Position numbers and translations under genes: made by a program. A stretch of DNA of 48,971 nt from an uncultured Clostridia bacterium (GTDB taxonomy: Bacteria > Bacillota > Clostridia > CALYAR01), in assembly GCA_944393585.1 (NCBI GenBank), contig CALYAR010000073.1, positions 1-48,971 of the forward strand, given 5' to 3'. The notes beneath the pieces were generated by a model, which ran no database searches, was not told the DNA's origin, and saw only the letters and a list, made by a program, of their open reading frames with translations. Of this stretch, positions 10,313 to 32,869 are shown piece after piece; the first letter of the stretch is position 1; each line of letters opens with the position of its first letter.

Positions 10313-11206
10313 ATGTATAACCCGCAACTGGATACTTTTCTATGTGTGGCAGAATCAGGAAGTTTTAATAAGGCTGCTGAAAAGCTGTTCATCTCCCCGC
10401 CGGCTGTCATCAAACAGATTAATCTTTTGGAAGAGAGCTTGAATTTGCAGCTTTTTGTGCGCACTCACCGCGGATTGGTTTTGACCGAAGCCGGGAAATC
10501 CTTGTTTCAGGATGTCAAATACATCATTCAATATTGTAAGGATTCCGTAACTCGTGCCAGGAACGCCATGCAGGAAAGCACGGATGTCATCCGAATCGGC
10601 ACTTCACCTATGACTCCGGCCCAGGTGTTGGTGGATTTGTGGCCCAAGCTGCAGGCATACTGTCCTAACATAAAGTTCCAGCTCATTCCCTTCGACAATA
10701 CTCCGGAGAATGCACGCGAGATTTTAGCTAATTTGGGACAGAATATCGATGTGGTGGCAGGTATTTTCGATCGGACTATGTTGACCCTCCGTCAATGTGC
10801 AGGACTGGAGCTTTCCAGAGAGCCCATCTGCTGCGCCGTGTCGGTCCACCATCGGCTGGCCCAAAAGGAAAAGCTTACAGTTCAGGATTTGTATGGAGAA
10901 AACTTAATGCTCATGCGCCGGAATTGGAGTCATTATGTGGATCTGCTGCGCGACGATCTCTGGAAGAACCACCCGCAGATCCATATTGTAGATTTTAATT
11001 TTTACGATGTAGCGGTCTTTAACCAATGTGAGAACAACAACTGTGTGCTGATGGCCGTGGAAAACTGGCGGTATGTACATCCGCTGCTGAAAATTATGCC
11101 GGTGGATTGGGGCTACTCCATTCCCTTTGGGTTATTGCATTCTCCTCAGCCTTCTTCCACGGTTAAACAATTTCTGCGCGCAGTGGAAAAGACATTAAAA
11201 GCATAA
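10313..11206 (+). CDS. LysR family transcriptional regulator
   Basis: N-terminal HTH LDTFLCVAESGSFNKAAEKLFISPPAVIKQINLLEESL plus a LysR substrate-binding domain. AGAAGGG RBS. Length is 297 aa. Confidence 0.9.
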   Translation: MYNPQLDTFLCVAESGSFNKAAEKLFISPPAVIKQINLLEESLNLQLFVRTHRGLVLTEAGKSLFQDVKYIIQYCKDSVTRARNAMQESTDVIRIGTSPMTPAQVLVDLWPKLQAYCPNIKFQLIPFDNTPENAREILANLGQNIDVVAGIFDRTMLTLRQCAGLELSREPICCAVSVHHRLAQKEKLTVQDLYGENLMLMRRNWSHYVDLLRDDLWKNHPQIHIVDFNFYDVAVFNQCENNNCVLMAVENWRYVHPLLKIMPVDWGYSIPFGLLHSPQPSSTVKQFLRAVEKTLKA

Positions 11207-11248
11207 ACCGATTAACACTATTAACCTTTTGGTATAAACTGAATAACG

Positions 11249-11282
11249 AATCGAGACTTCTGCGGAGGTCTCGATTTTTTTA
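11249..11282 (+). terminator. Rho-independent terminator after the LysR gene
   Basis: Stem AATCGAGAC/GTCTCGATT followed by a T-run. Confidence 0.75.
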
Positions 11283-11320
11283 TAATGAGATTAACAGGAA
11301 TACGAAAGACGGGTGAGAAA

Positions 11321-12352
11321 ATGAAAAAGAAATCGGTCCTTGCCGCGGCACTCTGTTTGGTACTTTGTTTCACCGGATGCAGCGGAGGCCAGCGACCTGG
11401 AATAACCAGCGAGACTCAATCGGCCGAGAGCAGCCGGCAGGAAACTGGAGGAGAAGATTCCATGCAGCCAGCAAATGGTGCCGGCGAACCCTTTACGGTG
11501 GATACCACAATCGAGGAAGTTGTAAATGAGCCTGTGTTTGGAGACTACGGCCGGCTGATCTTTCCGGTAGACAGCGGCTACTACAGCGGAGATACTCTCG
11601 GAGACCTCCGCCTCACTTGGTATAACAACATTGACCCGGAAAAGACGGTGGAGATCGTCAATTACCTGAAAGAGCATGCAGAAGCAGGTGATACTGTATT
11701 TTATGACATTTACACCGAAGAAGAAAAGGCGGAGGATCCGGGAAAAGAGGATACAGGACTTTTCTTCTTCCGGGGAGACGCGGGTGCTCCTTTTGCTGTG
11801 TGCAGCGCCGGAGGCGGATTTGCATATGTGGGAGCCATGCAGGATAGTTTTCCGCATGCACTGGAATTATCAAAACGAGGCTACAATGCCTTTGCTCTGA
11901 TTTACCGCCCCGGTGCGCAGACCGCCTGCGAAGACCTGGCGCGGGCCATCAGCTTTATCTTTGAACATGCCGAAGAGCTGCAGGTGGACACCGAATGCTA
12001 CTCGCTTTGGGGCGGTTCGGCCGGAGCAAGGATGGCGGCATGGCTGGGTTCCTACGGCCCGGCAGCATTCGGCGGCGATGACCTGCCTCAGCCTGGTGCA
12101 GTCATTATGCAGTACACTGGACATACCGATTACACCGAAAACGATCCGCCCACCTTTGCCTGCGTGGGAGAAAATGACGCAATCGCCAACTGGCATACCA
12201 TGGAGCGGCGTATTCAGGAGCTGGATGCACTGGGAATTCCAACTGAATTTCATCATTATCCGGGCCTGCACCATGGTTTTGGCCTAGGCACCGGCACCGC
12301 GGCCGAAGGATGGCTGGACCAGGCGGTTGCCTTTTGGGAAGCGCAGATGTGA
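11321..12352 (+). CDS. Exported lipoprotein, alpha/beta hydrolase (esterase/lipase-like)
   Basis: ATG at 11321 gives MKKKSVLAAALCLVLCFTGC (lipobox). A Ser nucleophile motif LWGGSAGA and a C-terminal HHGFG are present. The ORF-track start at 11285 adds 12 aa ahead of the signal peptide. Confidence 0.85.
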   Translation: MKKKSVLAAALCLVLCFTGCSGGQRPGITSETQSAESSRQETGGEDSMQPANGAGEPFTVDTTIEEVVNEPVFGDYGRLIFPVDSGYYSGDTLGDLRLTWYNNIDPEKTVEIVNYLKEHAEAGDTVFYDIYTEEEKAEDPGKEDTGLFFFRGDAGAPFAVCSAGGGFAYVGAMQDSFPHALELSKRGYNAFALIYRPGAQTACEDLARAISFIFEHAEELQVDTECYSLWGGSAGARMAAWLGSYGPAAFGGDDLPQPGAVIMQYTGHTDYTENDPPTFACVGENDAIANWHTMERRIQELDALGIPTEFHHYPGLHHGFGLGTGTAAEGWLDQAVAFWEAQM

Positions 12353-12438
12353 GTTTTTAATTTTATTGTTGTAGAAAACTTTATGCAAATGCAGTTCAGC
12401 TATCCCAGCATTTGCTAAAGAAGAAAAGGAAGTTTGAT

Positions 12439-13269
12439 ATGAAAAAAGTAATGATTTTGACAGGAGCGGGCCAGATCGGCATGGCGATAGCCCGCAGAAT
12501 GGGAGCGGGCATGAAAATTGCGATCGGCGACAAAAATCCGAAAAATGCGGAGAATACCGCTGGGATTATGAAAGATGCGGGGGTTGACACGATGGCTATG
12601 GAGATGGATCTCTCTTCCCGCAAGTCCATTCAGGATCTGATTGCGAAGGCACAAGAATACGGCGATATTGCCATGCTGGTCAACGCTGCGGGAGTCTCTC
12701 CCAGCCAGGCCCCGATTGAGACAATTTTGAAGGTGGATTTATATGGCACTGCTGTTTTGCTGGAGGAAGTGGGAAAAGTGATTGTTTCCGGCGGCACAGG
12801 GGTAACCATTTCCAGTCAGTCAGGTTACCGAATGCCTGCTCTTTCCCCAAAACAGGATGAACAGCTTGCCTGTACTCCTGCGGAGAAACTGCTTGAACTA
12901 GATATACTTCAGCCGGAGAATATCCGGGACACGCTTCATGCCTATCAGCTGGCAAAGCGGTGCAATGAAAAACGGGTTATGGCCGAAGCGGTCAAATGGG
13001 GCGAAAGGGGAGCACGCCTCAACTCTATCTCTCCGGGAATCGTAGTAACGCCTTTGGCCATTGACGAATTCAACGGACCGCGCGGAGATTTTTATCAGAA
13101 CATGTTTGAAAAATGCCCGGCGGGCCGCCCTGGCACAGCGGATGAGATTGCCAATGTAGCAGAGTTGTTGATGAGCGAAAAGGGCGCATTTATTACCGGT
13201 GCGGATTTTCTGATCGACGGCGGCGCTACGGCTTCTTACTTTTACGGTCCGCTTCGCCCCGGAAAATAA
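12439..13269 (+). CDS. SDR family oxidoreductase
   Basis: MKKVMILTGAGQIGMAIARR (TGxGxIG) and a YQLAK catalytic motif. AAAAGGAAG RBS upstream of the ATG at 12439. Confidence 0.88.
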   Translation: MKKVMILTGAGQIGMAIARRMGAGMKIAIGDKNPKNAENTAGIMKDAGVDTMAMEMDLSSRKSIQDLIAKAQEYGDIAMLVNAAGVSPSQAPIETILKVDLYGTAVLLEEVGKVIVSGGTGVTISSQSGYRMPALSPKQDEQLACTPAEKLLELDILQPENIRDTLHAYQLAKRCNEKRVMAEAVKWGERGARLNSISPGIVVTPLAIDEFNGPRGDFYQNMFEKCPAGRPGTADEIANVAELLMSEKGAFITGADFLIDGGATASYFYGPLRPGK

Positions 13270-13306
13270 AAAGCAAAAAGGATTTCTATGGAAGGAGATG
13301 TGATAG

Positions 13307-14473
13307 ATGAACAACTTTATTTTTCAAAACGCCACAAAGGTCTATTTCGGCCGTGGCTGTGTAAAAGAATATCTCTCCTGTCTGACAGGCCCCTATGATA
13401 CGGTCATGCTGGCCTATGGCGGAGGGTCGATCAAAAAAAACGGCATATATGACGAGGTCGCCGGGATACTGCGCAATGCCGGAAAAAACATTGTGGAGTT
13501 TTCCGGGATTATGGCCAACCCAACCTATGCCAAAGTGCTGGAAGGTGCAAATCTGGCGCGGGAAAGCAAGACGGACATGATTCTTGGGATCGGCGGGGGG
13601 AGCGTGATGGATTGCTGCAAGGCCATTTCTTTGGCCGCACGGTATGAAGGTGATATCTGGGAAGATTTCTGGGCCCGTCCCGGCGTTATCGAGGCGGAGC
13701 CTCTGCCGCTTGGAGTTATCGTCACAGTGGCAGGCACCGGCAGCGAGTGCAATGGCGGCGCAGTCATCACCAACGAAGAGAAGAAAATAAAAACCGGCCG
13801 TGATTATCCGAAACTGAATCCCCGCTTTGCCCTGATGGATCCAACCTATACTTACAGCGTGCCGGTGAAGCAGATGGTGTCCGGCGGATTTGATATTTTA
13901 AGTCATATTATGGAGACCTATTTCAGTGAGCCCAATGAGGATAACGTGTCCGATGATATCATGGAGGCACTGATGAAAAGCGTCATCCGCAACCTGCGGG
14001 CTGCCATTTTAAATCCAGAAGACTATACTGCCCGCAGCAATCTGATGTGGGACTCCACTATGGCAGAAAATCGCATCATCAAAATGGGAAAAAAATGCGA
14101 TTTCGAGTGTCACAATATGGAACATCAGCTTGGGGCCTATACCAACTGTAATCACGGCTGCGGTCTGGCGGTCCTGCATCCGGTGTATTACCGGCATATC
14201 TATAAGGATGGACTTGCCAAGTTTGTCCGGTTTGCGGAAAATGTATGGGGAATTGCCCGTGACGGAATGGATGAGGAGGAACTGGCCCTTGCAGGAATCA
14301 ACGCTTTGGCCGATTTTATCCGGGAAATCGGGCTGCCCGCTGCGTTAAAAGAATTGGGCACTGACCAGGCTCAATTAAAGGAGATTGCCAATTCCTGCGG
14401 CATTTCGGCAGGAAGCTATAAGAAAATGACCCATGAAGAAATCCTGGAAATCTTCCAGGAATGTTATGATTGA
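13307..14473 (+). CDS. Iron-containing alcohol dehydrogenase (butanol dehydrogenase/YqhD-like)
   Basis: Fe-ADH hallmarks GIGGGSVMDCCKAI, VTVAGTGSE and HxxxH (HNMEHQLGAYTNCNHGCGLAVLHP). GGAAGGAG RBS. Confidence 0.92.
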   Translation: MNNFIFQNATKVYFGRGCVKEYLSCLTGPYDTVMLAYGGGSIKKNGIYDEVAGILRNAGKNIVEFSGIMANPTYAKVLEGANLARESKTDMILGIGGGSVMDCCKAISLAARYEGDIWEDFWARPGVIEAEPLPLGVIVTVAGTGSECNGGAVITNEEKKIKTGRDYPKLNPRFALMDPTYTYSVPVKQMVSGGFDILSHIMETYFSEPNEDNVSDDIMEALMKSVIRNLRAAILNPEDYTARSNLMWDSTMAENRIIKMGKKCDFECHNMEHQLGAYTNCNHGCGLAVLHPVYYRHIYKDGLAKFVRFAENVWGIARDGMDEEELALAGINALADFIREIGLPAALKELGTDQAQLKEIANSCGISAGSYKKMTHEEILEIFQECYD

Positions 14474-14487
14474 AAGGAGCACTCACA

Positions 14488-15171
14488 ATGAAAAAATTAA
14501 CCGCAATATTTTTATCACTTATGATGGTATTCAGCCTTGCCGCATGCACCAGCGAAAGCCCTTCCACTCCATCTGCCACACCGGATTCGTCTCCATCGGA
14601 GAGTCCTCAGGCTTCCGAACCGGCAAGCACTCCGTCTTCCTCTGCCGCAGTGGAAAGCGAGCCGCAGCCGGAAACGGATGCTGAAACGGGAAAAACCCTG
14701 GTAGTCTATTTTTCAGCTACCGGCAATACCGAAGCAGCGGCAAACTATATTGCTGAAATCACCGGCGGTGACCTGTTTGAATTAGAGCCTGCAGACCCAT
14801 ACACCAACGAGGATCTGAATTGGAGAGATGAGGACAGCCGGGTGGTATATGAGCATGATAACCCGGATGCCCGTGATGTAGAATTGGTAGCGGATACGGT
14901 GGAGAATTGGGACGAGTATGATACTGTATTTATCGGATATCCGATTTGGTGGGGAATCGCCGCGTGGCCGGTAGATACCTTTGTAGAGGCCAACGATTTT
15001 ACCGGAAAAACCGTCATTCCTTTCTGCACCTCCTCTTCTTCCGGTTTGGGGGCAAGCGGGCAGCTTCTGGCGGAGCTGGCCGGAACCGGCGACTGGCAGG
15101 AAGGGCATCGTTTCTCATCCAGAGTGAGTGAAGAAGACGTGCGGAGCTGGCTGACTGGACTGGGCCTGTAA
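14488..15171 (+). CDS. Exported lipoprotein with a flavodoxin-fold domain (Flavodoxin_4-like), canonical FMN P-loop
   Basis: MKKLTAIFLSLMMVFSLAAC lipobox, then an S/P/E-rich linker. The flavodoxin domain has an intact phosphate loop VVYFSATGNTE and a GYPIWWG aromatic motif. AAAGGAG RBS before the ATG at 14488. Confidence 0.85.
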   Translation: MKKLTAIFLSLMMVFSLAACTSESPSTPSATPDSSPSESPQASEPASTPSSSAAVESEPQPETDAETGKTLVVYFSATGNTEAAANYIAEITGGDLFELEPADPYTNEDLNWRDEDSRVVYEHDNPDARDVELVADTVENWDEYDTVFIGYPIWWGIAAWPVDTFVEANDFTGKTVIPFCTSSSSGLGASGQLLAELAGTGDWQEGHRFSSRVSEEDVRSWLTGLGL

Positions 15172-15198: not shown

Positions 15199-16572
15199 AT
15201 GAAACGGATTATGCCTGTATTTCTGGCTTTTACGTTGTCTTTATGTCTGGCCGCGTGCAGCAATAGCCGGGAACCCTCCTCTCAATCGGTCATTTCAAAT
15301 GAGCAGAACGGTATACAGCAAAGCCAATCGAATATTCTGATTGCCTATGCGCCTGCGGAGGACGGCGATTGCATAGCACAAACGGCTGCCTTGCTCCAGG
15401 AAGCGGTGGGCGGCGATTTGTTCCAGATCGAAGAAGAAGCAGACGGAGACTTTGCCGTCTACGAATTTATTCTGCTGGGGTTTGACACAGAGAACAGTAC
15501 ATTGCCGGAGCACATTCAGGAATTTTTGAAAACCAATCAATTTGGCGCAAAAACCATTATTCCGTTCGTGAGCGGCAGTGAAAATGATTCCGACGCCATT
15601 TTTTCTGCGATTTCGCAGCTTCAGCCCGGCGCCCTGCTGGGGGAAAGTGCACTTCTGTTTACCGCGGACACCAGGGAACAGGAAATTACGGAGTGGGCTC
15701 AAGGATTAAATCTGTCCGATCAGGCCTTTGTCCCGGAAAGCGACGGCGGTAATACCGTTGCAACTGCCTTGGTGACCCCGGAGGTCCAGCAGGTACTGTA
15801 TCTCTGGGAGGAGGACAATGCGCCTGCCGTCACAGAATACACGCAAAACAATGGAGCTTATTCGGATGAACCGGATTTTCGGCCCTACATTACCAGCTTT
15901 CCGGTACCGGATGGGACTGCCGTCAAGGGTGCAGTGCTCATTTGTCCCGGAGGAGCTTTTCAGTTCCGCAGCGACCAGCCGGAAGGCGTGGATGTGGCCG
16001 AGGCACTCAGCGCCCTTGGCTATCAGAGCTTTGTAGTGGATTACCGCCTGCGTCCCTATACACAGCAGGAAGGAGCACTGGATCTGGCACGAGCAGTACG
16101 GTTTGTCCGCGCCCATGCAGAGGAATACGGCATTGCCGAAGACGACATTGCCGTGATGGGGTTTTCTGCCGGTGGAATTTTGAGCGGAGAGATGCTTTTG
16201 AATTTTGACGGGCAAGTCAATGGCACCGCGCTGGACCCGGATTATGTACCGGATCAGCTGGACGAAATATCCGCAGACGCAGCGGCCTGCGGAATGATCT
16301 ATTCTTTCTATGGCCGGCTGAGCGTTGGCACTACGGATGTAGAACTGCTGCGTTCCGGCAACCTGCCGCCTACCTTCTACTGCTACGGCACTCGTGATCC
16401 ATTTTACGAACAATTCCTTGCCAACGCGGATGCAGCAGAGGAAGCCGGTGTTGCCGTAGAACGGCTGCAGCTGGACGATATGCCTCACGGCTTCGGAGCC
16501 AGCGGGGATTGGATTCCTGCCTATGACGAATGGCTGTCGGAAGTTTTTGCAGCTAATGAAGGGAGAATGTAA
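15199..16572 (+). CDS. Exported lipoprotein: degenerate flavodoxin-like N-domain fused to an alpha/beta hydrolase (Aes-type esterase)
   Basis: Lipobox LCLAAC. The N-domain aligns with the flavodoxin paralogs (GGDLFQI..., TIIPFVSGS), but the YFSxTGNT loop is replaced by AYAPAEDGD. The C-domain has GFSAGG and PHGFG alpha/beta hydrolase motifs. Confidence 0.8.
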   Translation: MKRIMPVFLAFTLSLCLAACSNSREPSSQSVISNEQNGIQQSQSNILIAYAPAEDGDCIAQTAALLQEAVGGDLFQIEEEADGDFAVYEFILLGFDTENSTLPEHIQEFLKTNQFGAKTIIPFVSGSENDSDAIFSAISQLQPGALLGESALLFTADTREQEITEWAQGLNLSDQAFVPESDGGNTVATALVTPEVQQVLYLWEEDNAPAVTEYTQNNGAYSDEPDFRPYITSFPVPDGTAVKGAVLICPGGAFQFRSDQPEGVDVAEALSALGYQSFVVDYRLRPYTQQEGALDLARAVRFVRAHAEEYGIAEDDIAVMGFSAGGILSGEMLLNFDGQVNGTALDPDYVPDQLDEISADAAACGMIYSFYGRLSVGTTDVELLRSGNLPPTFYCYGTRDPFYEQFLANADAAEEAGVAVERLQLDDMPHGFGASGDWIPAYDEWLSEVFAANEGRM

Positions 16573-16574: not shown

Positions 16575-17108
16575 ATGAATAAAAAAGTTTTGGTTTTGGC
16601 CGGAAGTCCGCGAAAAGGCGGAAATTCGGATTTGCTGTGCGACGAATTAATTCGCGGCGCACAGGAGTCTGGCAATACGGCGGAAAAGATTTATGTGCAG
16701 GATTGGAAGATTGCTCCTTGCCGTGCTTGTTATGCCTGCAGAGGAACGGGAAGCTGTGTGCAGAAGGATGATATGGCGCAGCTTCTGGAAAAAATGATCG
16801 ATGCCGATGTGATTGTTCTGGCAACGCCTGTCTATTTCTATTCCATGGACGGACAGATGAAAACCATGATAGACCGTACACTGCCCAGGTATATGGAGAT
16901 CAAAAACAAGGAATTCTTCCTCATTGCCACTGCCGCCGCCGGTGCGGAGGCAATGGAACGCACCATAGACAGCCTGCGCGGATTTACCGACTGTCTGCCG
17001 AATGCTAAGGTACGGGGTGTGATATATGGAGCCGGCGTTTATCGAAAGGGCGAAGTTGCGCGGACAAAAGCAATGAAAGACGCTTTTCGCGCTGGCCAGT
17101 CTATATAA
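16575..17108 (+). CDS. NAD(P)H-dependent FMN reductase / iron-sulfur flavoprotein (Isf)-like
   Basis: VLVLAGSPRKGGNS flavodoxin-like fold. A compact Cys motif CRACYACRGTGSC (CX2CX2CX5C) resembles the Isf 4Fe-4S site. There is no signal peptide. Confidence 0.85.
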   Translation: MNKKVLVLAGSPRKGGNSDLLCDELIRGAQESGNTAEKIYVQDWKIAPCRACYACRGTGSCVQKDDMAQLLEKMIDADVIVLATPVYFYSMDGQMKTMIDRTLPRYMEIKNKEFFLIATAAAGAEAMERTIDSLRGFTDCLPNAKVRGVIYGAGVYRKGEVARTKAMKDAFRAGQSI

Positions 17109-17187
17109 AAAACGAGATCCATGATCCGGGCGGTCAGCCGGAAGGGGTCTGTTTTCCGTCGATTTACTCGTTTAGAAAGAAGGCAAT

Positions 17188-18555: not shown

Positions 18556-18639
18556 CCTTTGGGTTTTAACTGCAAAACAAATGGAGACTTCTGTTTAAAG
18601 CGCAAGGAATTATAATAAAGACATAAGGAGATGAAAACG

Positions 18640-19626: not shown

Positions 19627-19675
19627 CCCCAGTGACCAGTGAGAATACAATTAGTTATAAATGGAGGAATGTACA

Positions 19676-25172: not shown

Positions 25173-26299
25173 AACGATTTACCGCAGTTATACTGGCTGT
25201 GGGGCTGATTTTTTCTCTGGCGGCCTGCCAAAATCAAGATGATGAACCGCCGTCCGTCAGTACCCCGTCGGCAGAGAACCAGGAACCTGCTGCGTCTGCT
25301 GAACCTGCAGAGCAGGACCTCACGCAATCAGAAATACCGGAGACTAAGAGTATATTAATCGCTTACTTTTCCCTGGGCCGTAATGCCGATTCCCCCAAAG
25401 ACATTGATGCCAGTACATCGGCAAGCCTTGTGATGGATGGAGAAGAACAAATGGGAACCACGGAATATGTAGCACATTTGATTCAGGACAATGTGGGCGG
25501 GGATCTCCATTCCATTCAAACTTTAGACCCCTATTCTTCGGATTTTGATACCGTGGTGGATCAAAACCACGAAGAACAGGATGCCGGTACCCTGCCTGTG
25601 CTGATGACCAGCGATTTGGATGTTTCCCAATACGATATTGTGTTTATTGGATATCCTATTTGGGCTACCAGTGCTCCGCAGGCCGTCTTTTCCTTCCTCT
25701 CTCAATATGATCTGTTCGGAAAAACATTGATTCCCTTCTGTACTCATGATGGGTACGGTGCAGGCAGCAGCTATAAGGACATTGCAGACGCTGTCAGCGG
25801 AGCAAGGGAGGTCTTAGACGGATTGGCTGTTGAGGCGTCGGACGTGCCCGATTCTGAAGAAACCGTTGCCGAGTGGCTGCGGAGTATTGATATAGAGCAG
25901 CAGTCTGAGACTGCCAATCAGTCTGGGGAAACGGCAATTACCATTTCGATCGGCGATACTGTGCTGGACGGCGTATTATATAACACGGCTCTGGCAAACG
26001 AAATTCAGCAGTATTTTCCGCTGACGATTTCTATGACGGGCTTTGGCGGAAGAGAATATTATGGAGGTGTAGATTTCTATCTGGAGAATGCAGAAGGCGG
26101 GCAAAAAAATTTTGAAAACGGTGATATCACATATTGCCAAGCTCATCACAACATGGCGATATTTTACGCACAGACCGATGATCCTGATCTTTCCGTAGAG
26201 GTAATTCCCATAGGGAAAGTGACATCTGATCTTGGCATATTCCATGAACTTCCGGGCAGTGTGGAAATCACATTCGCTCTGGCGGATTCGTTAATTTGA
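25169..26299 (+). CDS. Exported lipoprotein: flavodoxin-fold domain fused to a cyclophilin-like domain
   Basis: Lipobox FSLAAC, then an acidic P/E/S linker. The flavodoxin-fold domain has a split P-loop (AYFS...DIDASTSAS...GTTE) and GYPIWA. The C-terminal about 120 aa (ITISIGDTVLDGVLYNTALANEI...GDITYCQAHHNMAIFY...IPIGKV) matches the cyclophilin-like family pattern. Confidence 0.8.
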   Translation: MKRFTAVILAVGLIFSLAACQNQDDEPPSVSTPSAENQEPAASAEPAEQDLTQSEIPETKSILIAYFSLGRNADSPKDIDASTSASLVMDGEEQMGTTEYVAHLIQDNVGGDLHSIQTLDPYSSDFDTVVDQNHEEQDAGTLPVLMTSDLDVSQYDIVFIGYPIWATSAPQAVFSFLSQYDLFGKTLIPFCTHDGYGAGSSYKDIADAVSGAREVLDGLAVEASDVPDSEETVAEWLRSIDIEQQSETANQSGETAITISIGDTVLDGVLYNTALANEIQQYFPLTISMTGFGGREYYGGVDFYLENAEGGQKNFENGDITYCQAHHNMAIFYAQTDDPDLSVEVIPIGKVTSDLGIFHELPGSVEITFALADSLI

Positions 26300-26322: not shown

Positions 26323-27108
26323 ATGAAAAAATTTTTGATTATCTTTACGGCGTGTATCTTGACTTTAATTTTGGCGGCCTGCAGTGAAAATAGTACGTCC
26401 GGCGATTCACAGCCCGAACCGACTCCAAGCAGTTCTCAGATAAGCGTGCCGCAAACGCCTTCTTCTGAGCCGGAAGATCCTGAACCGTTGCCTGCGGAGC
26501 CTTCCTCCGCATTGTCTGATGAGGAGCAGCCAGCGGAAGAAGAGGAAACGGAAACAAATATGCTGGTTGCTTATTTCAGCTATGCCGAGAATGCAGATTT
26601 GCCGGATGATGTAGATGCGTCCGCCTCGGCAAGCATTCAGGCCTGGAACGGCGAGATCACAGGCAACACCGGTGTAGTGGCCGCCATGATTGCCGAAGCA
26701 ACCGGTGCGGACCTGTTCTCCATTCAAACGGTAGAAAAATACCCTGATACCTATGATGCAACCATTAACCAGGGACAGGAAGAACGCAATCAAGACGCCC
26801 GACCAGAGCTTGCTTCTCATCTGGAAAATACAGAAAGCTATGATGTCATTTTCCTGGGCTTTCCCAATTGGTGGGGAGACATGCCAATGGCGGTATACAG
26901 TTTTTTGGATGAAGTGGATCTTTCGGGTAAGACCATTGTGCCATTTGTCACTTCCGGCGGCAGCGGATTCTCCAATACCATTCGTACGATTGAAAGCCTG
27001 GAATCCGGCGCAGCCGTCCAGCAGGGACTATCCGTCAGCGCCTCCAGTGCCGCAGGTGCACAGGATCAGGTCAATGAATGGCTCAGCGGACTGGGATATG
27101 CAGGGTAA
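26323..27108 (+). CDS. Exported lipoprotein with a flavodoxin-fold domain (long P-loop insert)
   Basis: Lipobox LILAAC, an acidic linker, AYFSYAENADLPDDVDASASASIQAWNGEITGNTG, then GFPNWWG and VPFVTSGGSG. Confidence 0.85.
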   Translation: MKKFLIIFTACILTLILAACSENSTSGDSQPEPTPSSSQISVPQTPSSEPEDPEPLPAEPSSALSDEEQPAEEEETETNMLVAYFSYAENADLPDDVDASASASIQAWNGEITGNTGVVAAMIAEATGADLFSIQTVEKYPDTYDATINQGQEERNQDARPELASHLENTESYDVIFLGFPNWWGDMPMAVYSFLDEVDLSGKTIVPFVTSGGSGFSNTIRTIESLESGAAVQQGLSVSASSAAGAQDQVNEWLSGLGYAG

Positions 27109-27122
27109 AAGGAGCGGTTATT

Positions 27123-28094
27123 TTGAAAAAACGTATTCTTGGAAAACAAAATTCATTGACAGTTTCTGAAATCGGCATGGGCTGCATGGGATTCAGCCAT
27201 GGCTATGGCCCAGGACCAGGGCGGAATGAGTCTATCCAGCTGATCCGGACTGCCTACGATTTGGGCTGTACTTTCTTTGACACGGCAGAAGGGTATGCAG
27301 CCGGCGAAAACGAAAGGCTGGTCGGCGAGGCAATCAAACCATTCCGGCACGAGGTGATCCTCGCCACAAAGCTGCATATTCCAGAGGAGGGAGACTTGGA
27401 AACCGCCATTCGAAAACATCTGGACGACTCTCTCTTCCGGCTGGGATGCGACTATGTGGATCTGTATTACCAGCACCGGGTCAATAAGAATATTCCAGTT
27501 GAAGAAGTGGCCGGCGTCATGGGCAAGCTCATTGACGAAGGCAAGATTCGCGGCTGGGGGCAGTCTCAGGCTTCAAACAGTGAGATCCGCCGGGCACATG
27601 CTGTTACTCCGATCACGGCGATTCAAAGCGAGTATTCCTTGATGGAGCGGATGTTTGAAAAGGATGTGCTTCCTGCATGCAGGGAGCTTGGCATTGGCTT
27701 TGTCCCCTTCTCTCCGCTGGGAGCAGGTTTCCTGAGCGGCAGATATACCAGCAAAGACATCTATACCGGTGACGATGTTCGCCGCGTCATTACCCGCTTT
27801 TCCAAAGACAATATGGATGCCAATCAGCCGCTGCTGGATTTGCTCCATCGGTTTGCACATGAAAAAGGCGCAACTCCAGCGCAGATTTCACTGGCCTGGA
27901 TGCTGCACAAATGGGATTTTTTAGTACCCATTCCCGGTATGCGGAAGGCGGAGCGAATCAGGGAGAATTTTGGCTCTGCGGATGTGGTGCTCACCCATGA
28001 GGAATTTGGGCGGCTGGAAGCAGAACTTGCCCGAATGAATATCTACGGAAACCGAACCGATGAGGATATTGCCAAGCTGCGGGATATGATTTGA
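27123..28094 (+). CDS. Aldo/keto reductase
   Basis: The TTG at 27123 lies 8 nt after the AAAGGAG RBS (27108-14). The ORF-track start at 27078 would overlap the upstream gene. Motifs GMGCMGFS, DTAEGY and HRVN are present. There is no signal peptide. Confidence 0.9.
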   Translation: MKKRILGKQNSLTVSEIGMGCMGFSHGYGPGPGRNESIQLIRTAYDLGCTFFDTAEGYAAGENERLVGEAIKPFRHEVILATKLHIPEEGDLETAIRKHLDDSLFRLGCDYVDLYYQHRVNKNIPVEEVAGVMGKLIDEGKIRGWGQSQASNSEIRRAHAVTPITAIQSEYSLMERMFEKDVLPACRELGIGFVPFSPLGAGFLSGRYTSKDIYTGDDVRRVITRFSKDNMDANQPLLDLLHRFAHEKGATPAQISLAWMLHKWDFLVPIPGMRKAERIRENFGSADVVLTHEEFGRLEAELARMNIYGNRTDEDIAKLRDMI

Positions 28095-28152: not shown

Positions 28153-28890
28153 ATGAGAAAAATTACGGCACTGCTTATAGCATTTGTTTTGACTTTTTCT
28201 TTTGCTGGATGCAGTTCCAATCAAGAGGAGCAGAAACCGGCTGAAAGTCCATCCAACCGCGCAGAGCCTGCTCCCTCAGAATCGCCGTCTGGTTCTGAAA
28301 CTTCTGCGCCGGCGGATGACTCCTCACAGGGACAGTCTGCCGGCGATGAAAGCAATATACTGGTGGCATATTTTTCCTGGGCTGACAATGCTGTGATCGA
28401 GGGAGATGTGGACGCTGTGACTTCTCCCAGCGTTACTGCTCCCGGCAATGTACAGCAGCTTGCCGGATGGGTGCAGGAAAAAACAGGCGGCGATTTGTTC
28501 TCAATTCAGGTGACAGAACCGTATCCCAGCGGTTGGGATGAATGCCTGGAACGAGCCAATCAGGAGCGGGCAGAAGATGCCCGGCCGGAGCTTACGGCCG
28601 CTGTAGAAAATATGAACGACTACGATACGGTCTTTCTGGGTTACCCCAACTGGTGGTATGGGGCACCGATGGCACTTTTGTCTTTTCTGGAAGAAAACGA
28701 CCTGTCGAATAAGCAGATCTATCTGTTTTGTTCTCATGGCACAGGGGGTCTTGCAGGAAGTGTAGAGGATATTCAAGCGGTACTGCCGGACAGCGCCGTG
28801 CTCTCTGACAATGTCTTTGACGTGTACGAAGAAGAGGCAGCATCTTCACAGAATGCTATTTTGGATTGGCTGGCAGAACTGGGATATTGA
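28153..28890 (+). CDS. Exported lipoprotein with a flavodoxin-fold domain (long P-loop insert)
   Basis: MRKITALLIAFVLTFSFAGC lipobox, an S/P/E linker, AYFSWADNAVIEGDVDAVTSPSVTAPGNV, then GYPNWWYG and LFCSHGTGG. Confidence 0.85.
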   Translation: MRKITALLIAFVLTFSFAGCSSNQEEQKPAESPSNRAEPAPSESPSGSETSAPADDSSQGQSAGDESNILVAYFSWADNAVIEGDVDAVTSPSVTAPGNVQQLAGWVQEKTGGDLFSIQVTEPYPSGWDECLERANQERAEDARPELTAAVENMNDYDTVFLGYPNWWYGAPMALLSFLEENDLSNKQIYLFCSHGTGGLAGSVEDIQAVLPDSAVLSDNVFDVYEEEAASSQNAILDWLAELGY

Positions 28891-28958: not shown

Positions 28959-29654
28959 TTGAAACCGAAAATGATGTTAAAAATGTCCATAGATTTTGTC
29001 ATGACAGTTCTGCTTCTCTGCCAGATGGCTTATATGCTCATTGGAGAGACAGCGCATGAATGGATGGGAACGGCTTTGTTTCTGCTGTTTATCCTGCACC
29101 ATATTCTCAACTGGAGATGGTATAAAAATTTATCCGCAGGAAAGTACAGTGCTGTTCGGATTTTGCAGACTATAGTTGATTTTTTGGTACTCTTCTCCAT
29201 GATTGGCCTGATGATCAGCGGCATTATGATGTCCAGGGAGGTGTTTGCTTTCCTGCCGATCGGCGGAGGAATGGGATTTGCCCGAATTCTGCACATGCTG
29301 ACCGCCTATTGGGGATTCATTTTTATGAGTATCCATCTCGGACTGCACTGGGGGATGATTATGAGCATGATACGGAAGCTGAGCGGTACATCTAAGATAG
29401 TCCCTGTCCGAACCTGGATATTACGGGTGCTGGCAGTCATAATCTGCTGCTTTGGTATATATTCCTTTTTCAGACACAACATTGCCGACTATCTGTTTGT
29501 ACGCAGTCAGTTCGTATTTTTTGATTTGGAACAGCCGCTTATACTGTTTTTTGGAGAATACCTGGCCATGATGGGCCTGTGGGTCTGTATCGCATACTAT
29601 GCAGTCCGGTTGATATCAAAATGCACAGGAAAAAAGCCAATTAAAAAAGGCTAA
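28959..29654 (+). CDS. DUF4405-like polytopic membrane protein with conserved intramembrane histidines (possible b-type cytochrome)
   Basis: About 6 TM segments. His residues sit in or near TM helices (ETAHEW, FILHHILNW, RILHML, SIHLGLHW), matching the DUF4405 N-terminal pattern. The start is uncertain (TTG 28959 or the ATGs at 28971, 28974 or 28983). Confidence 0.7.
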   Translation: MKPKMMLKMSIDFVMTVLLLCQMAYMLIGETAHEWMGTALFLLFILHHILNWRWYKNLSAGKYSAVRILQTIVDFLVLFSMIGLMISGIMMSREVFAFLPIGGGMGFARILHMLTAYWGFIFMSIHLGLHWGMIMSMIRKLSGTSKIVPVRTWILRVLAVIICCFGIYSFFRHNIADYLFVRSQFVFFDLEQPLILFFGEYLAMMGLWVCIAYYAVRLISKCTGKKPIKKG

Positions 29655-29926: not shown

Positions 29927-31099
29927 ATGAATTTTCAGATGTATATGCCAACTAGGATTTTATTTGGCGCAGGGCAGCTTTCGAATCTGCACGCACAGGC
30001 ACTGCCCGGCAAAAAGGCTATGATTGTTATTTCCAACGGCAAGTCAACCCGGGCAAACGGTTCTCTTGCCAAAACAGAACAGCAGTTAAAGCAGGCCGGA
30101 GTAGAGACCGTTCTGTTTGACAAGATCATGGCAAATCCATTGAAGTCCACCGTGATGGAGGGCGCTGCCTATGCGAGAAAAAACGGCTGTGATTTTCTAG
30201 TGGCTTTGGGCGGGGGCAGCGTCATGGACGCTTCCAAAGCGATTGCGGCGATGGCGGTCAATGACGGCGATTTGTGGGACTATGTGTCCGGCGGCACCGG
30301 AAAAGGCAAAGCTCTGGTCAGCGAGCCGCTTCCCATTGTGGCCATTACGACAACAGCGGGAACCGGCAGTGAAGTAGATCAGTATGGCGTTATTTCCAAT
30401 GAGGAAACCAACGAAAAAATCGGGTTTGGCGGTTCGGATTCCTTGTTTCCCCGGCTTGCTGTCGTCGATCCGGAGCTCATGAGCACAGTTCCTCCCCGGT
30501 TCACTGCCTATCAGGGATTTGACGCTCTGTTTCACAGCGTTGAGTGCTATATTGCGGCACCGGCCAATCTGATGAGCGACATGTACGCCTTAACTGCCAT
30601 GGAAAACATCGGAACCTATCTTGGACGAGCAGTGAAGAATGGGGCAGATTTGGAGGCCCGGGAGCATGTAGCCTTTGCAAATACCCTTTCCGGTGTGGTC
30701 ATGACACTGAGCGGCTGTACCAGTGAGCATTCCATTGAGCACGCAATGAGTGCATACCATCATGACCTTCCTCACGGAGCAGGGCTAATTATGATTTCCA
30801 AGGCATATTTTACTCACTTCATTAATAGGCACGCCTGTGATGAGCGGTTTATTTGTATGGCACGCGCCTTGGGAAAACAGAATGCAAAAGAACCAATGGA
30901 TTTCATTGCAGCACTGACAGAGCTGCAGGAAGAATGCGGTGTGGCAGATTTAAAAATGTCGGATTATGGCATAGAGCCCGAGGAGTTTATGACCCTTGCC
31001 CGGAATGCCCGCGCCACTATGGGAGGTCTGTTCGCCTGCGACCGGGTACCGCTTTCTGATGAGGATTGTGCCGCTATCCTTGAAAAATCTTACCGCTAG
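29927..31099 (+). CDS. Iron-containing alcohol dehydrogenase
   Basis: ALGGGSVMDASKAIA and TTTAGTGSE motifs, plus His-rich metal ligands (HSIEHAMSAYHHDLPHGAG). GGAGG RBS. Confidence 0.92.
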   Translation: MNFQMYMPTRILFGAGQLSNLHAQALPGKKAMIVISNGKSTRANGSLAKTEQQLKQAGVETVLFDKIMANPLKSTVMEGAAYARKNGCDFLVALGGGSVMDASKAIAAMAVNDGDLWDYVSGGTGKGKALVSEPLPIVAITTTAGTGSEVDQYGVISNEETNEKIGFGGSDSLFPRLAVVDPELMSTVPPRFTAYQGFDALFHSVECYIAAPANLMSDMYALTAMENIGTYLGRAVKNGADLEAREHVAFANTLSGVVMTLSGCTSEHSIEHAMSAYHHDLPHGAGLIMISKAYFTHFINRHACDERFICMARALGKQNAKEPMDFIAALTELQEECGVADLKMSDYGIEPEEFMTLARNARATMGGLFACDRVPLSDEDCAAILEKSYR

Positions 31100-31120
31100 A
31101 GCGTCATAGGAGGAATCAAT

Positions 31121-31234
31121 GTGGGCAATAACAGGATGACGCCGCTTTCTGCCGTTACCTGGTACATTCCCTATATTGGATTTCCCCGCACTCTGAATGC
31201 GGTAAATTGTATCAATGAAATTGCAAAAGAGTAA
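31121..31234 (+). pseudogene. Carboxymuconolactone decarboxylase (AhpD-like) family remnant, C-terminal about 37 codons only
   Basis: A GTG at 31121 follows a TAGGAGGA RBS. The translation VGNNRMTPLSAVTWYIPYIGFPRTLNAVNCINEIAKE matches only the C-terminal helix pair (YxGfPxxlNA) of CMD-family proteins. It is too short for a full domain. Confidence 0.4.
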
Positions 31235-31285
31235 CGAGAGGCAGGCGATGCTGGTACAGCACGGCTTACTGAGATTTATCAAAGA

Positions 31286-31340
31286 AACAGCTCTGATATG
31301 GACTCCAATTTCAGAGCTGTTATCTTTGAAAGCTCTTTTC
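31286..31340 (+). terminator. Terminator region after the ADH/CMD-remnant unit
   Basis: A perfect 11-bp inverted repeat AACAGCTCTGA/TCAGAGCTGTT (31286-96 and 31311-21). A second small stem AGAGCT/AGCTCT and a TTTT run follow. Confidence 0.5.
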
Positions 31341-31452
31341 GTTATGTCTGTAATTGGAATGATTTGGGTTATACTATAGAAACAGCAGTGGAAAAAATAT
31401 TAAATCCGCGCTATAATAAAAAAGAAACAATCAAAAAGTATGCGGTGGTATT

Positions 31453-32349
31453 ATGAATTCGATCATTCCGGAATTACAAAATGAAGTACGCCGCCTTTGT
31501 CCTGCCGAAGGCGGAAATGCAACAGGAATTCCATTTGTAACGGCCTGGCGGTTTGCGGACAGAAAAATCCAAATGCCGCAGACAGATAATCCTTATGTGT
31601 ATATTGTTCTGAACGGTATGCTTAGACTGTATACGCCTTCAGGCATTCTGGACTATATGGTCGGGCAATATTCTATCTCGAAAATTGATACTCCGTTTTC
31701 GGGGACGGCATTGGGCATTTCACAGCAGGATTTTTTAGCTCTTTCTGTAGAATTCTCAGTGAATGACGTCATAACAGCGGTCTTGGGATTGGATCATGAC
31801 CTGACAGAGAAAATCATGGAGGAAAAGCTGGAAGAGCAGACAATGTCTGAAGCGGACAGGTTGGTCGTTTGGTCCGTTTATCGGATTTTTTCTGTATTAA
31901 AGCAGGCAGTTTGGTCTGAATCTTTGGGAAAAAATATGCTGCAGGAGATCATCTACTATCTCCTGTGCGGTTCCTGTGGAAAGCAGTTCCTTCAAAGTAT
32001 TGTAAATATTGGGCAAGCCGATGAGATTTATGAAGCAAACAACTGGATCAAAGAAAATTTCCGGCAGGCTTTTACCGTAGAAGAATTGGCAGAACAGCGA
32101 AACATGAGCGTTTCGCACTTTCATCAGAAATTCAAAAGTGCTGTGGGAATGGGGCCGCTGCAATGCCAAAAGCGGCTTCGGCTTACAGAAGCCAGACGGC
32201 TGATGCTGGATGAGAACAAAAATGTAACGCAGGCTTCGATTAAAGTAGGATATGAAAGCCTTTCCCAGTTTATCCGGGATTATCGGAAAATGTTTGGGAT
32301 GGCTCCAAAAGAGGATATTCTCACAATTCAAAGGCAGCTGAAGGAATAG
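31453..32349 (+). CDS. AraC family transcriptional regulator
   Basis: C-terminal double HTH (FTVEELAEQRNMSVSHFHQKFK...ASIKVGYESLSQFIRDYRKMFG). The N-terminal domain is AraC_N-like. Confidence 0.9.
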   Translation: MNSIIPELQNEVRRLCPAEGGNATGIPFVTAWRFADRKIQMPQTDNPYVYIVLNGMLRLYTPSGILDYMVGQYSISKIDTPFSGTALGISQQDFLALSVEFSVNDVITAVLGLDHDLTEKIMEEKLEEQTMSEADRLVVWSVYRIFSVLKQAVWSESLGKNMLQEIIYYLLCGSCGKQFLQSIVNIGQADEIYEANNWIKENFRQAFTVEELAEQRNMSVSHFHQKFKSAVGMGPLQCQKRLRLTEARRLMLDENKNVTQASIKVGYESLSQFIRDYRKMFGMAPKEDILTIQRQLKE

Positions 32350-32458
32350 GCAAATTTTTCGGAGAAACGGGCAAGCGGCATAGACAATTCATTTGTTATA
32401 CTCAAAATACAAAAGAGGTTTTTCCTCGCATCAATCTAGGAATATGGAGGTTTTTGTA

Positions 32459-32869
32459 ATGGTTTTAACAGATGAACTGTGTGATAAGCTTTGCACTGCC
32501 GCACGAGAAAAGAGCAGGGAAATGGGAATTGATATCAGCTTTGCGGTCAGCGACGAGAATGGTCTGCCCAGAGTTTACCGCAGATATGGGGAAGCGTTGG
32601 TGCTGAGTATTACCCTCGTACCCGGAAAAGCCTATACGGCTGCCGTTACACAATGTAAAACAAAAGATGTAGCTGCTGCTGCCGCAGAAGGTGCTCCCCT
32701 AATGGCGATTCGGACAAATGACCCCCGGATTACGCTTGTGGCCGGAGGATATCCGTTGTTTGTAAATGGGAAGATTGCCGGCGGCATTGGAGTAGGAGGC
32801 GGAACAGAGGAGCAAGACTGCGAAATTGCGGAGTATGTAGTTTCCGTGTTTGAGAGATTAAGCTTATAA
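32459..32869 (+). CDS. GlcG/HbpS-like (DUF336) heme-binding family protein
   Basis: The pattern FAVSDENG...AGGYPLF.NGKIAGGIGVGGGTEEQDCEIA is typical of DUF336. The GGAGG RBS lies 8 nt before the ATG at 32459. Confidence 0.85.
   Translation: MVLTDELCDKLCTAAREKSREMGIDISFAVSDENGLPRVYRRYGEALVLSITLVPGKAYTAAVTQCKTKDVAAAAAEGAPLMAIRTNDPRITLVAGGYPLFVNGKIAGGIGVGGGTEEQDCEIAEYVVSVFERLSL

Follow-up and report, generated by a model that had tools for sequence, protein, structure and literature searches.

A redox gene neighbourhood built around flavodoxins with export signals lies in a 48,971-nucleotide contig of an uncultured Clostridia bacterium (CALYAR010000073.1; the whole of this stretch is called 'the window' below). 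It occupies positions 10313–32869, with the genes for ApbE, EetA and EetB a little further downstream, and it joins lipoproteins of the Flavodoxin_4 family and surface esterases to cytoplasmic aldo-keto reductases (AKRs), iron-type alcohol dehydrogenases (Fe-ADHs) and flavoproteins. With a probability of about 0.6, the region is a mosaic neighbourhood, conserved widely and probably exchanged horizontally, with two redox branches, whose joint role would be the removal of electrophiles on both sides of the membrane. Its core is a member of a system published in 2024, but the extension of that system to carbonyl reductases, Isf-type flavoproteins and surface esterases was not found in the literature searched.

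The exported branch and its flavinylation genes

Seven products of the region carry a lipobox after a basic-hydrophobic N-terminus, followed by a tether rich in Ser, Pro and Glu that can be read from each sequence, in agreement with an earlier sequence-only reading of this DNA that had listed seven exported lipoproteins. Designated by the start of their genes, they are four Flavodoxin_4 proteins (14488, 25169, 26323 and 28153), a degenerate flavodoxin fused to an esterase (15199) and two alpha/beta hydrolases (11321, with the lipobox FTGC, and 22027). Pfam E-values for the four flavodoxins range from 1e-18 to 2e-42, and these proteins are predicted to lie outside the cytoplasm. Alignment reveals an insert of 22–27 amino acids in 25169, 26323 and 28153 that is absent from 14488. 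The latter retains an uninterrupted YFSATGNT loop and is thus probably of the non-covalent FMN type, while the flavodoxin domain of 15199 has lost its phosphate loop. For the Cyclophil_like2 domain fused to the flavodoxin of 25169, no sequence relative was found in the PDB.

It has been established that a Flavodoxin_4 insert located between the first strand and the first helix carries the flavinylation site of ApbE, as confirmed for two Firmicute proteins by co-expression and by Ser/Thr-to-Ala mutants (PMC11334425, mSystems 2024). When 32 insert-type homologues are aligned, including a periplasmic E. coli flavodoxin with the motif DGFSGAS, the Asp at position -6 never varies and the Ser at position 0 is conserved at 90% or more. 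The multi-histidine membrane protein noticed earlier is the DUF4405 protein 28959, in which H33, H47, H112 and H126 are each conserved in 95–100% of 44 homologues. According to the literature, DUF4405 is a cytochrome that binds haem b, has four histidines at its centre and is structurally like MsrQ (PMC11334425). The covalent FMN and haem b data cover homologues from A. xylanovorans, D. lacus and an Oscillospiraceae bacterium; co-localisation of apbE, DUF4405, a flavinylated Flavodoxin_4 gene and a flavin transporter is described in an Oscillospiraceae bacterium, and no physiological role is assigned to the system (PMC11334425).

The right border first drawn at 32869 was too narrow, since it omits the ApbE–EetA–EetB genes (35993–37898) that are part of the exported system. 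PF07456 corresponds to EetB, the FAD-exporting ECF-S component, and eetB is co-localised with eetA in 3,328 genomes and with apbE in 2,169 genomes (PMC9973259). EetA is given no Pfam family in that study, and the NusG_II protein 37021 is taken here as EetA, being the neighbour of EetB. Linkage of ApbE and DUF4405 with PF07456 is repeated in four related loci (L077, L010, L011 and L018). No gene of the FmnA-type ECF-T component was seen in the window, and the eLife 2021 survey of flavinylation contains no mention of the NusG_II/PF07456 pair or of Flavodoxin_4 clusters. The sequence-only reading had found no pathway to name; by its motif, its histidines and its ApbE–EetA–EetB genes, the exported half can be named, as it matches the flavinylated Flavodoxin_4/DUF4405 electron-transfer cluster (PMC11334425). 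Because the window matches the published cluster on each of these points, the flavodoxin lipoproteins are the likely clients of the downstream ApbE–EetA–EetB genes.

Cytoplasmic reductases and the conserved neighbourhood

Scanning contigs with the alignment pattern of the insert-type flavodoxins yielded more than 592 relatives, among which 80 loci were taken, with flanking sequence of up to 10 kb to either side. They come from Oscillospiraceae, Lachnospiraceae, Erysipelotrichaceae, Paenibacillus, Enterococcus, Spirochaetes, Bacteroides/Phocaeicola, Desulfovibrionaceae, Pasteurellaceae and Methanosarcina. Homologous clusters are present in cultured organisms such as Thomasclavelia saccharogumia DSM 17460 (L018), Pseudoflavonifractor capillosus (L073), Parablautia intestinalis (L022) and Clostridium sp. 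KNHs205 (L017). Families were assigned by phmmer comparison of the window proteins with all open reading frames (ORFs) of these loci, and the results below refer to this set. Coupling of the flavodoxins to cytoplasmic reductases is strongly conserved, with at least one reductase family in 66 of the 80 loci and at least two in 40. AKRs are found in 45 loci, represented by 74 genes of which 72 are on the flavodoxin strand and 91% within 5 kb of a flavodoxin gene; their density within 4 kb of the flavodoxin is 5.3 times that beyond. Fe-ADHs occur in fewer loci (24), but all 26 genes are near and on the same strand, at a median gap of 36 nt to a Flavodoxin_4 gene; the latter lies directly 3′ of the Fe-ADH in about 15 of the 26 cases, and about 13 of these flavodoxins are clearly exported. 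FMN_red proteins are present in 33 loci (4.3-fold denser near the flavodoxin), with the Isf cysteine motif in 37 of 41 cluster homologues, and Flavin_Reduct proteins in nine, each time within 4 kb of a flavodoxin gene. On the membrane and surface side, DUF4405 is found in 40 loci (median gap 15 nt, 30-fold denser near) and esterases in 23 (5.7-fold denser near, about half of them lipoproteins). LysR regulators occur in 30 loci, CMD proteins in 15, MerR regulators in 13 and ApbE in nine.

Conserved synteny, on which the sequence-only reading had staked its proposal, is kept in Firmicutes, Spirochaetes, Bacteroidota, Desulfovibrionaceae, Enterobacteriaceae and Methanosarcina. The two-compartment layout likewise stands, the genes for cytoplasmic NAD(P)H reductases being interspersed among those for surface lipoproteins and, as a particular case, AKR 3 (27123) enclosed by the exported flavodoxin genes 26323 and 28153. 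Membership of the conserved set does not extend to every gene that had been included. GlcG has no homologue in any of the 80 loci, and MATE (near/far ratio 1.1), RibD_C (1.1) and AraC (1.8, seven genes) are not enriched near their flavodoxins, so that these four are rejected or left undecided as core members. Both RibD_C copies of the genome are nevertheless inside flavodoxin clusters.

Clustering of the unassigned neighbours, done without bias, brought out further recurrent partners, namely cupin/CMD genes (14 loci), stand-alone and apparently exported Cyclophil_like2 proteins (14), AKRs fused to a 4Fe–4S dicluster domain (AKR-Fer4; 13), DUF362 proteins (13) and ArsP-type permeases (8). An AKR-Fer4 representative from a Bacteroides locus (L023 11177–12583) bears both a twin-arginine (Tat) signal and a lipobox. 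Long flavodoxin ORFs in other loci encode tandem flavodoxins, an SLH-anchored double flavodoxin (L064 1102–2793) and, in four cases, exported FGE-sulfatase–flavodoxin fusions (L052, L045, L071 and L069). The SLH-anchored and FGE fusions give independent support for an extracellular location of the flavodoxins.

Three further clusters of the genome, on contigs C85, C43 and C56, also repeat the gene combination. The first (L001 4684–10768) contains, in this order, FMN_red, Fe-ADH, a flavodoxin lipoprotein without insert, RibD_C, an esterase lipoprotein, an insert-type flavodoxin (DTVAGAS) and DUF4405, with a divergent TetR-like regulator upstream whose match is weak (below the Pfam cut-off). That of C43 consists of a divergent LysR gene, a cytosolic flavodoxin, a CMD gene, a second cytosolic flavodoxin and an AKR; a paralogue of LysR1 (5.7e-79) adjoins this cytosolic cluster. 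On C56 (L097 1938–8795), DUF3737 is accompanied by a lipoprotein that has a double Cyclophil_like2 domain, a pair of AKR-Fer4 genes, DUF362 and an ArsP-type permease. The same AKR-Fer4, DUF3737, DUF362 and ArsP genes are found in Ca. Falkowella (L077 11371–16794), beside or just 3′ of DUF4405 and 5′ of ApbE. In total, the 2.8-Mb genome has nine Flavodoxin_4 matches; among 61 genomes (this one and 60 relatives of the same class) a match exists in 20, most of which have one. Outside the flavodoxin clusters, about 2.75 Mb of the genome hold seven AKR genes.

Pfam agrees with the enzymes and regulators listed earlier for the region, that is three AKRs, two Fe-ADHs, one short-chain dehydrogenase/reductase (SDR), the Isf-like FMN_red, Flavin_Reduct, RibD_C, GlcG-like and MATE proteins, as well as two LysR, one MerR and one AraC regulator, all at the claimed positions. 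No signal sequence is present on the AKRs, Fe-ADHs, SDR, FMN_red, Flavin_Reduct or RibD_C proteins of the region, and the catalytic residues of the AKRs are readable in their sequences. Isf proteins are defined by an FMN_red fold with a compact CX2CX2CX4-7C motif; 16575 has this fold together with the cysteine motif CX2CX2CX5C (CRACYACRGTGSC), and it is a candidate for the cytosolic electron donor. Fe-ADH1 is closest to the butanol dehydrogenase of T. maritima and to E. coli YqhD, AKR1 and AKR3 are YdjG/Tas/Kv-beta-like and AKR2 is DkgA-like. Scores remain below the NCBIfam equivalog cut-offs for YqhD (PRK15138; 247.8 bits for 13307 against 645) and for DkgA (PRK11565; 236 bits for 19661 against 425). 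As none reaches its equivalog cut-off, Fe-ADH1 and the AKRs are to be regarded as homologues, not orthologues, of the reactive-aldehyde reductases. NmlR is a regulator of carbonyl and nitrosative stress. The MerR protein 24801 falls far short of the NmlR equivalog cut-off (42.8 bits against 175), with full-length coverage and as its sole NCBIfam match.

Transcription units, mosaic structure and probable horizontal exchange

According to the ORF listing and Pfam, the region contains 23 consecutive genes, all on the + strand as had been stated, although their number had been put at about 24. This co-directionality is rejected as the signature of an island, because the + strand holds nearly every gene of the 49-kb window, where the GC skew is positive throughout. 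Junctions are indeed short or overlapping within units (-4 to 88 nt), but six wider breaks of 114, 173, 826, 154, 272 and 353 nt (with refined gene starts) separate the units, and a single 22-kb operon is therefore rejected. The break of 114 nt holds a terminator-like 13-bp hairpin with a T-run (11248–11277) behind LysR1, which for this reason is taken as its own transcription unit.

On the basis of gene spacing and consensus scans, the region appears to be divided into no fewer than six or seven transcription units, which make up three or four modules. The proposed partition assigns LysR1 to unit 1; the esterase, SDR, Fe-ADH1, flavodoxin A, dead-flavodoxin–esterase and Isf genes (with MATE, AKR1, AKR2 and Flavin_Reduct in parentheses) to unit 2; RibD_C and an esterase to unit 3; LysR2 to unit 4; MerR, the flavodoxin–cyclophilin fusion, flavodoxin B, AKR3, flavodoxin C and DUF4405 to unit 5; Fe-ADH2 to unit 6; and AraC and GlcG to unit 7. 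Fe-ADH1 ends 14 nt 5′ of the flavodoxin lipoprotein gene 14488. The MerR gene heads the flavodoxin operon, its stop overlapping the start of 25169 by 4 nt, and is preceded by a promoter-like site (24708–24736; 11 of 12 matches). Fe-ADH2 stands alone between gaps of 272 and 353 nt. An Rfam scan of the whole window gave no match, the FMN riboswitch included. A direct repeat of 26 nt, 81% identical, was observed 5′ of the MATE gene (17169–17194) and in the 826-nt gap before LysR2 (23357–23382), where the second copy sits in a hairpin with a 13-bp stem (~23362–23400); with just two copies, it is possibly due to chance.

The four flavodoxin lipoproteins, the degenerate flavodoxin–esterase, the cytochrome, the ApbE/EetAB genes and both reductase modules are all found within 28 kb (Table 1). 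Just 3′ of Fe-ADH2 lies a remnant of 43 codons whose product matches, by blastx, the C-terminal ends of proteins of ~155–267 aa, mostly ~250 aa (39–43 aa at 46–59% identity), in six loci (L051, L059, L076, L061, L082 and L005). Its parent family is unconfirmed and possibly CMD, which is listed in four of the matching loci; the remnant is interpreted as a scar of gene turnover.

Table 1. Genes of the flavodoxin-centred region and of the downstream flavinylation trio, with the basis of each assignment
Feature	Positions	Strand	Basis
LysR-family regulator 1	10313..11206	+	Pfam HTH_1, LysR_substrate
Alpha/beta-hydrolase lipoprotein, BD-FAE/Abhydrolase_3-like, GGSAG nucleophile elbow	11321..12352	+	Pfam; lipobox CFTGC
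Cytoplasmic SDR oxidoreductase, PRK06940 subfamily	12439..13269	+	Pfam; NCBIfam NF005395 454 bits (cut-off 280)
Cytoplasmic Fe-ADH (Fe-ADH1), YqhD/BdhA type	13307..14473	+	Pfam; PDB 1vlj 4e-85, YqhD 8e-66
Flavodoxin_4 lipoprotein without insert (flavodoxin A)	14488..15171	+	Pfam 2.2e-42; PDB 4ici 1e-37, 3klb 4e-33; lipobox LAAC
Lipoprotein, degenerate Flavodoxin_4 fused to Abhydrolase_3 esterase (GFSAG)	15199..16572	+	Pfam; lipobox LAAC; paralogy to flavodoxins
Cytoplasmic Isf-type FMN_red, CRACYACRGTGSC	16575..17108	+	Pfam FMN_red 3.6e-25; cysteine motif
MATE efflux transporter (MatE)	17197..18555	+	Pfam; NCBIfam MepA-like, below cut-off
Cytoplasmic AKR 1, Tas/YdjG/Kv-beta-like	18631..19626	+	Pfam 1.4e-73; NCBIfam matches all below equivalog cut-offs
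Cytoplasmic AKR 2, DkgA-like	19661..20521	+	Pfam; NCBIfam DkgA 3.8e-70
Flavin_Reduct-domain NAD(P)H-flavin reductase	20540..21097	+	Pfam
RibD_C protein, DHFR-like reductase fold	21271..21978	+	Pfam
Alpha/beta-hydrolase lipoprotein, S9/esterase-like, GLSGG	22027..22920	+	Pfam; lipobox LTAC
LysR-family regulator 2, behind 826-nt non-coding gap	23747..24646	+	Pfam
MerR-family regulator, NmlR-like	24801..25172	+	Pfam MerR_1
Lipoprotein, insert-type Flavodoxin_4 + Cyclophil_like2 fusion	25169..26299	+	Pfam; lipobox LAAC; DASTSAS at 25406-25426
Insert-type Flavodoxin_4 lipoprotein (flavodoxin B)	26323..27108	+	Pfam; lipobox LAAC; DASASAS at 26614-26634
Cytoplasmic AKR 3	27123..28094	+	Pfam; paralogy to AKR 1
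Insert-type Flavodoxin_4 lipoprotein (flavodoxin C)	28153..28890	+	Pfam; lipobox FAGC; DAVTSPS at 28411-28431
DUF4405 membrane protein, predicted di-haem b transmembrane electron carrier	28959..29654	+	Pfam 1.8e-14
Second Fe-ADH (Fe-ADH2), not YqhD-type	29927..31099	+	Pfam; PDB 5yvm 1e-64
Gene remnant, C-terminal part	31103..31231	+	blastx
AraC-family regulator with AraC_N domain	31453..32349	+	Pfam
HbpS/GlcG-like protein	32444..32869	+	Pfam
ApbE FAD:protein FMN transferase, lipoprotein (MAGC)	35993..37024	+	Pfam 9e-88; N-terminus
NusG_II-domain membrane protein, taken as EetA	37021..37386	+	Pfam
PF07456 protein = EetB, ECF-S-type FAD exporter component	37401..37898	+	Pfam 4e-38

The view of the region as one island gives way to that of a mosaic whose modules differ in their closest relatives. 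Module 2 (LysR2 to DUF4405) and ApbE are syntenic with Ca. Falkowella (L077) at 63–84% identity, including homologues of LysR2 (79%) and AKR 3 (84%) at the same position and one of ApbE (76%) that is also 3′ of DUF4405. Module 1 (Fe-ADH1, flavodoxin A, AKR1, AKR2, Flavin_Reduct, RibD_C and an esterase) is syntenic with Ca. Gallacutalibacter stercoravium (L035), and four of its enzymes are 82–87% identical to their counterparts (Fe-ADH1 85%, AKR1 85%, AKR2 87%). RpoB is 70–71% identical to that of either genome, and the higher values of the four module-1 enzymes suggest exchange among chicken-gut Clostridia. This evidence is not decisive, since other cluster proteins are less similar (43–71% identity) and the best matches of non-cluster proteins range widely (40–90%). 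The GC content is 0.50–0.53 in the cluster and 0.44–0.49 in its flanks; no integrase, transposase or tRNA was seen, and no DNA near-identical to 10313–32869 was found in plasmids. Paralogy inside the region is old, with 31–38% mutual identity among the flavodoxins, 46% between AKR1 and AKR3 and 34% between the two Fe-ADHs.

Over larger distances, Flavodoxin_4 homologues are found in 111 plasmid records. A conjugative IncFIB/IncHI1B plasmid of Klebsiella pneumoniae (L095, NZ_CP141562.1) carries a version of the cluster in which a sensor kinase pair with a heavy-metal-type annotation is followed, in this order, by genes for a flavodoxin, DUF4405, a cupin, CMD, another flavodoxin, FGE, an esterase and two AKRs. 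Versions also exist on a few E. coli chromosomes. The one examined (L096, NZ_CP069945.1) comprises a sensor kinase pair with the same annotation, a signal-peptide flavodoxin with the canonical DGFSGAS, DUF4405, cupin, CMD, a second flavodoxin and an esterase; its single AKR, upstream of the cluster, bears a twin-arginine signal that points to a location in the periplasm.

Outside the redox genes, two small membrane proteins of the window (33268–33651 and 35228–35608) have a common GMC hairpin motif, and homologues of them are present in two flavodoxin-anchored loci (L039 3000–3383 and L066 12150–12500). A 345-aa membrane protein (34120–35157) has neither a Pfam match nor a homologue in the related loci. 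Further out, two giant SLH-anchored heparinase II/III-like genes (1546–9921 and 38641–43503) are paralogues in the same orientation, with 74% identity over 1,544 aa. Because these flanking genes are paralogous and co-oriented, the 28.7-kb redox segment lies within direct repeats at the protein-coding level.

Possible function and relation to known systems

In the exported branch, EetA/EetB would export FAD, and the ApbE lipoprotein would attach FMN covalently to the Ser of the inserted D-x5-S motif in three Flavodoxin_4 lipoproteins. DUF4405, as a di-haem b protein, would carry electrons across the membrane to these flavodoxins, which in turn would reduce an external acceptor; the likely cytoplasmic donor would be the Isf-type FMN reductase and/or Flavin_Reduct, fed by NAD(P)H or ferredoxin. 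Inside the cell, the YqhD/BdhA-type Fe-ADH, the DkgA-like AKR, the two Tas/YdjG-like AKRs and the SDR may reduce aldehydes and ketones with NAD(P)H, while the three esterases at the surface, of which one is joined to a dead flavodoxin domain, may act outside on ester substrates. The LysR and NmlR-like MerR regulators would sense an inducer and control the units. Diet-derived quinones, reactive aldehydes and phenolic esters could thus be removed reductively, reducing equivalents being disposed of at the same time. The electron donor and acceptor, the role of the AKRs, ADHs and esterases, and joint regulation are what we infer in this scheme; that insert-type Flavodoxin_4 is flavinylated, that DUF4405 contains haem b and that EetB exports FAD are taken from the literature cited above. 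The present analysis itself establishes which genes are there, their export signals, the conservation of the motif and of the histidines, and that of the neighbourhood.

Several observations weigh against electrophile removal by two coupled branches. The motif variants TSAS, ASAS and TSPS have another residue than the canonical SGAT/SGAS where Gly or Ala is expected, and flavinylation of 25169, 26323 and 28153 stays a prediction for this reason. ApbE lies 6.3 kb 3′ of DUF4405 with unrelated genes intervening, and module 1 has a flavodoxin lipoprotein but no DUF4405 of its own. Across the 80 loci, the presence of DUF4405 is weakly associated with that of FMN_red/Flavin_Reduct or AKR (Fisher p ~0.07), and the controls for enrichment are the far flanks of the same loci and one genome. 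Finally, AKRs, Fe-ADHs, LysR regulators and esterases are common families that also cluster with purely cytosolic Flavodoxin_4 (C43), so that the link between flavodoxins and reductases may mean a shared regulon or shared transfer and not one pathway.

This last point leads to the explanation that there is no functional unit at all, stress and xenobiotic genes being gathered by regulon sharing and co-transfer, with independent exported and cytoplasmic systems. It agrees with the several transcription units and separate regulators, with the variation of gene order and content among loci, with the turnover to which the remnant points, and with the occurrence of modules 1 and 2 apart in other genomes (L035 and L077). 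It nevertheless appears highly improbable in view of the direct adjacency of Fe-ADH and flavodoxin lipoprotein genes in about 15 of 26 cases, of the AKR within the MerR–flavodoxin–DUF4405 operon here and in L077, of the same mix of genes across phyla and on plasmids, and of lineages in which the AKR itself is Tat-exported beside flavodoxins. In another explanation, the region would form an extracellular electron sink for energy or redox balance, in which surface flavodoxins reduce quinones, humics, flavins, metals or O2 and regenerate NAD(P)+, with AKRs and ADHs as parallel cytoplasmic sinks. The combination of ApbE, EetA/EetB, a membrane cytochrome and a flavinylated lipoprotein is the architecture of flavinylation-based extracellular electron transfer, reducing equivalents are consumed by every enzyme of the cluster, and the family is strongly expanded in this genome (nine Flavodoxin_4 matches versus 0–1 in most class relatives). 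An electron sink is all the same unlikely, since LysR, NmlR-like MerR and TetR regulators or the enterobacterial heavy-metal-annotated kinase pair better suit an inducible stress or xenobiotic response, esterase, CMD and cupin partners are unexpected in a respiratory sink, and the cluster is without a quinone-biosynthesis or NADH-dehydrogenase gene.

The flavodoxins fed by DUF4405 might also protect the envelope against oxygen and reactive oxygen or chlorine species by reducing O2, peroxides or oxidised envelope components in an MsrPQ-like manner, Isf and CMD/AhpD-like proteins doing so in the cytoplasm. The Isf of Methanosarcina reduces O2 and H2O2. Consistent with such protection are the Isf type of 37 of the 41 cluster FMN_red proteins, the recurrence of CMD/AhpD-like and cupin genes in the neighbourhood, the heavy-metal-annotated kinase/regulator pair that the enterobacterial version follows and the likeness of DUF4405 to MsrQ (PMC11334425). 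Yet AKRs, Fe-ADHs, SDR and esterases have no obvious role against reactive oxygen species, and the window cluster contains no peroxidase, rubrerythrin or superoxide reductase, nor any CMD gene save a possible C-terminal remnant of unconfirmed family; envelope protection thus seems quite improbable.

A stronger version of two-branch electrophile removal can be formulated, although it remains speculative and is held with low confidence. Cytoplasmic carbonyl reductases, surface esterases and cyclophilin-like modules, and the flavinylated flavodoxin/DUF4405 relay might constitute one undescribed, mobile, cross-phylum system that processes a class of external electrophiles in two steps, with ester cleavage and flavin-dependent reduction at the surface before carbonyls are reduced inside with NAD(P)H. 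The AKR step would have moved outside in some lineages, as Tat-exported AKRs or AKR-Fer4 fusions; if the two-step system is real, the AKR chemistry there would be driven by the surface flavodoxin relay and not by free NAD(P)H.

YqhD-type ADHs, AKRs, Isf-type flavoproteins and surface esterases accompany the flavodoxin system wherever it goes, be it in gut Clostridia, in Methanosarcina or on conjugative plasmids of Klebsiella and E. coli. Together with the stress-type regulators placed over the system and the existence of versions in hosts open to genetics, these partners provide concrete hypotheses, which can be tested, on the targets of the surface flavoproteins. A functional coupling would represent a common route by which anaerobes detoxify or exploit quinones, aldehydes and phenolic esters of the diet at their surface, with a bearing on gut xenobiotic metabolism and redox ecology. 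The window is an especially complete example of this pattern, not a unique one.

Among known systems, the YqhC–YqhD–DkgA set of E. coli is a reactive-aldehyde reductase system, resembled here by a YqhD-type Fe-ADH with a DkgA-like AKR and by an AraC_N regulator beside an Fe-ADH. It differs in that the window enzymes are below the equivalog cut-offs, AraC is not a conserved partner and the AraC gene follows, co-directionally, the Fe-ADH that is not of YqhD type. In Bacillus subtilis, the regulons of the YodB, MhqR and AdhR/NmlR type place flavin-dependent quinone reductases, alcohol dehydrogenases and carboxylesterases under stress regulators, and the best match of the window MerR is to NmlR, far below the cut-off. 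Those quinone and carbonyl regulons are wholly cytoplasmic and scattered over the chromosome, without exported flavoproteins or a membrane cytochrome. In the MsrPQ system of E. coli, a haem b membrane protein passes cytoplasmic electrons to an extracytoplasmic redox protein, and the oxidant-sensing regulator of msrPQ, HprSR, belongs to the heavy-metal-type sensor kinase family. The parallels are the MsrQ-like structure of DUF4405 (PMC11334425) and the heavy-metal-annotated kinase pair that precedes the enterobacterial cluster; in contrast, the window has no molybdoenzyme of the MsrP type, a flavodoxin stands in the partner's place and the proteins belong to different sequence families.

The route by which Listeria monocytogenes moves flavins to support extracellular electron transfer (FmnB/ApbE, EetA and EetB; PMC9973259) shares with the window the apbE–eetA–eetB trio and the export of FAD by EetB for flavinylation of extracytosolic lipoproteins. 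The client there is the FMN_bind protein PplA, and the membrane step is Ndh2/demethylmenaquinone, whereas in the window these places would be taken by Flavodoxin_4 and DUF4405. As to the published flavodoxin system (PMC11334425), the likeness comprises an extracytosolic Flavodoxin_4 with a motif-bearing insert after the first strand, a DUF4405 protein with four histidines, apbE with a PF07456 exporter nearby, and a Clostridia host. That paper mentions no AKR, alcohol dehydrogenase, LysR or hydrolase partners; the window has TSAS, ASAS and TSPS in place of SGAS and an ApbE gene 6 kb off, and it adds flavodoxin lipoproteins that lack the insert, fusions with esterase and cyclophilin-like domains, and several carbonyl reductases of the cytoplasm.

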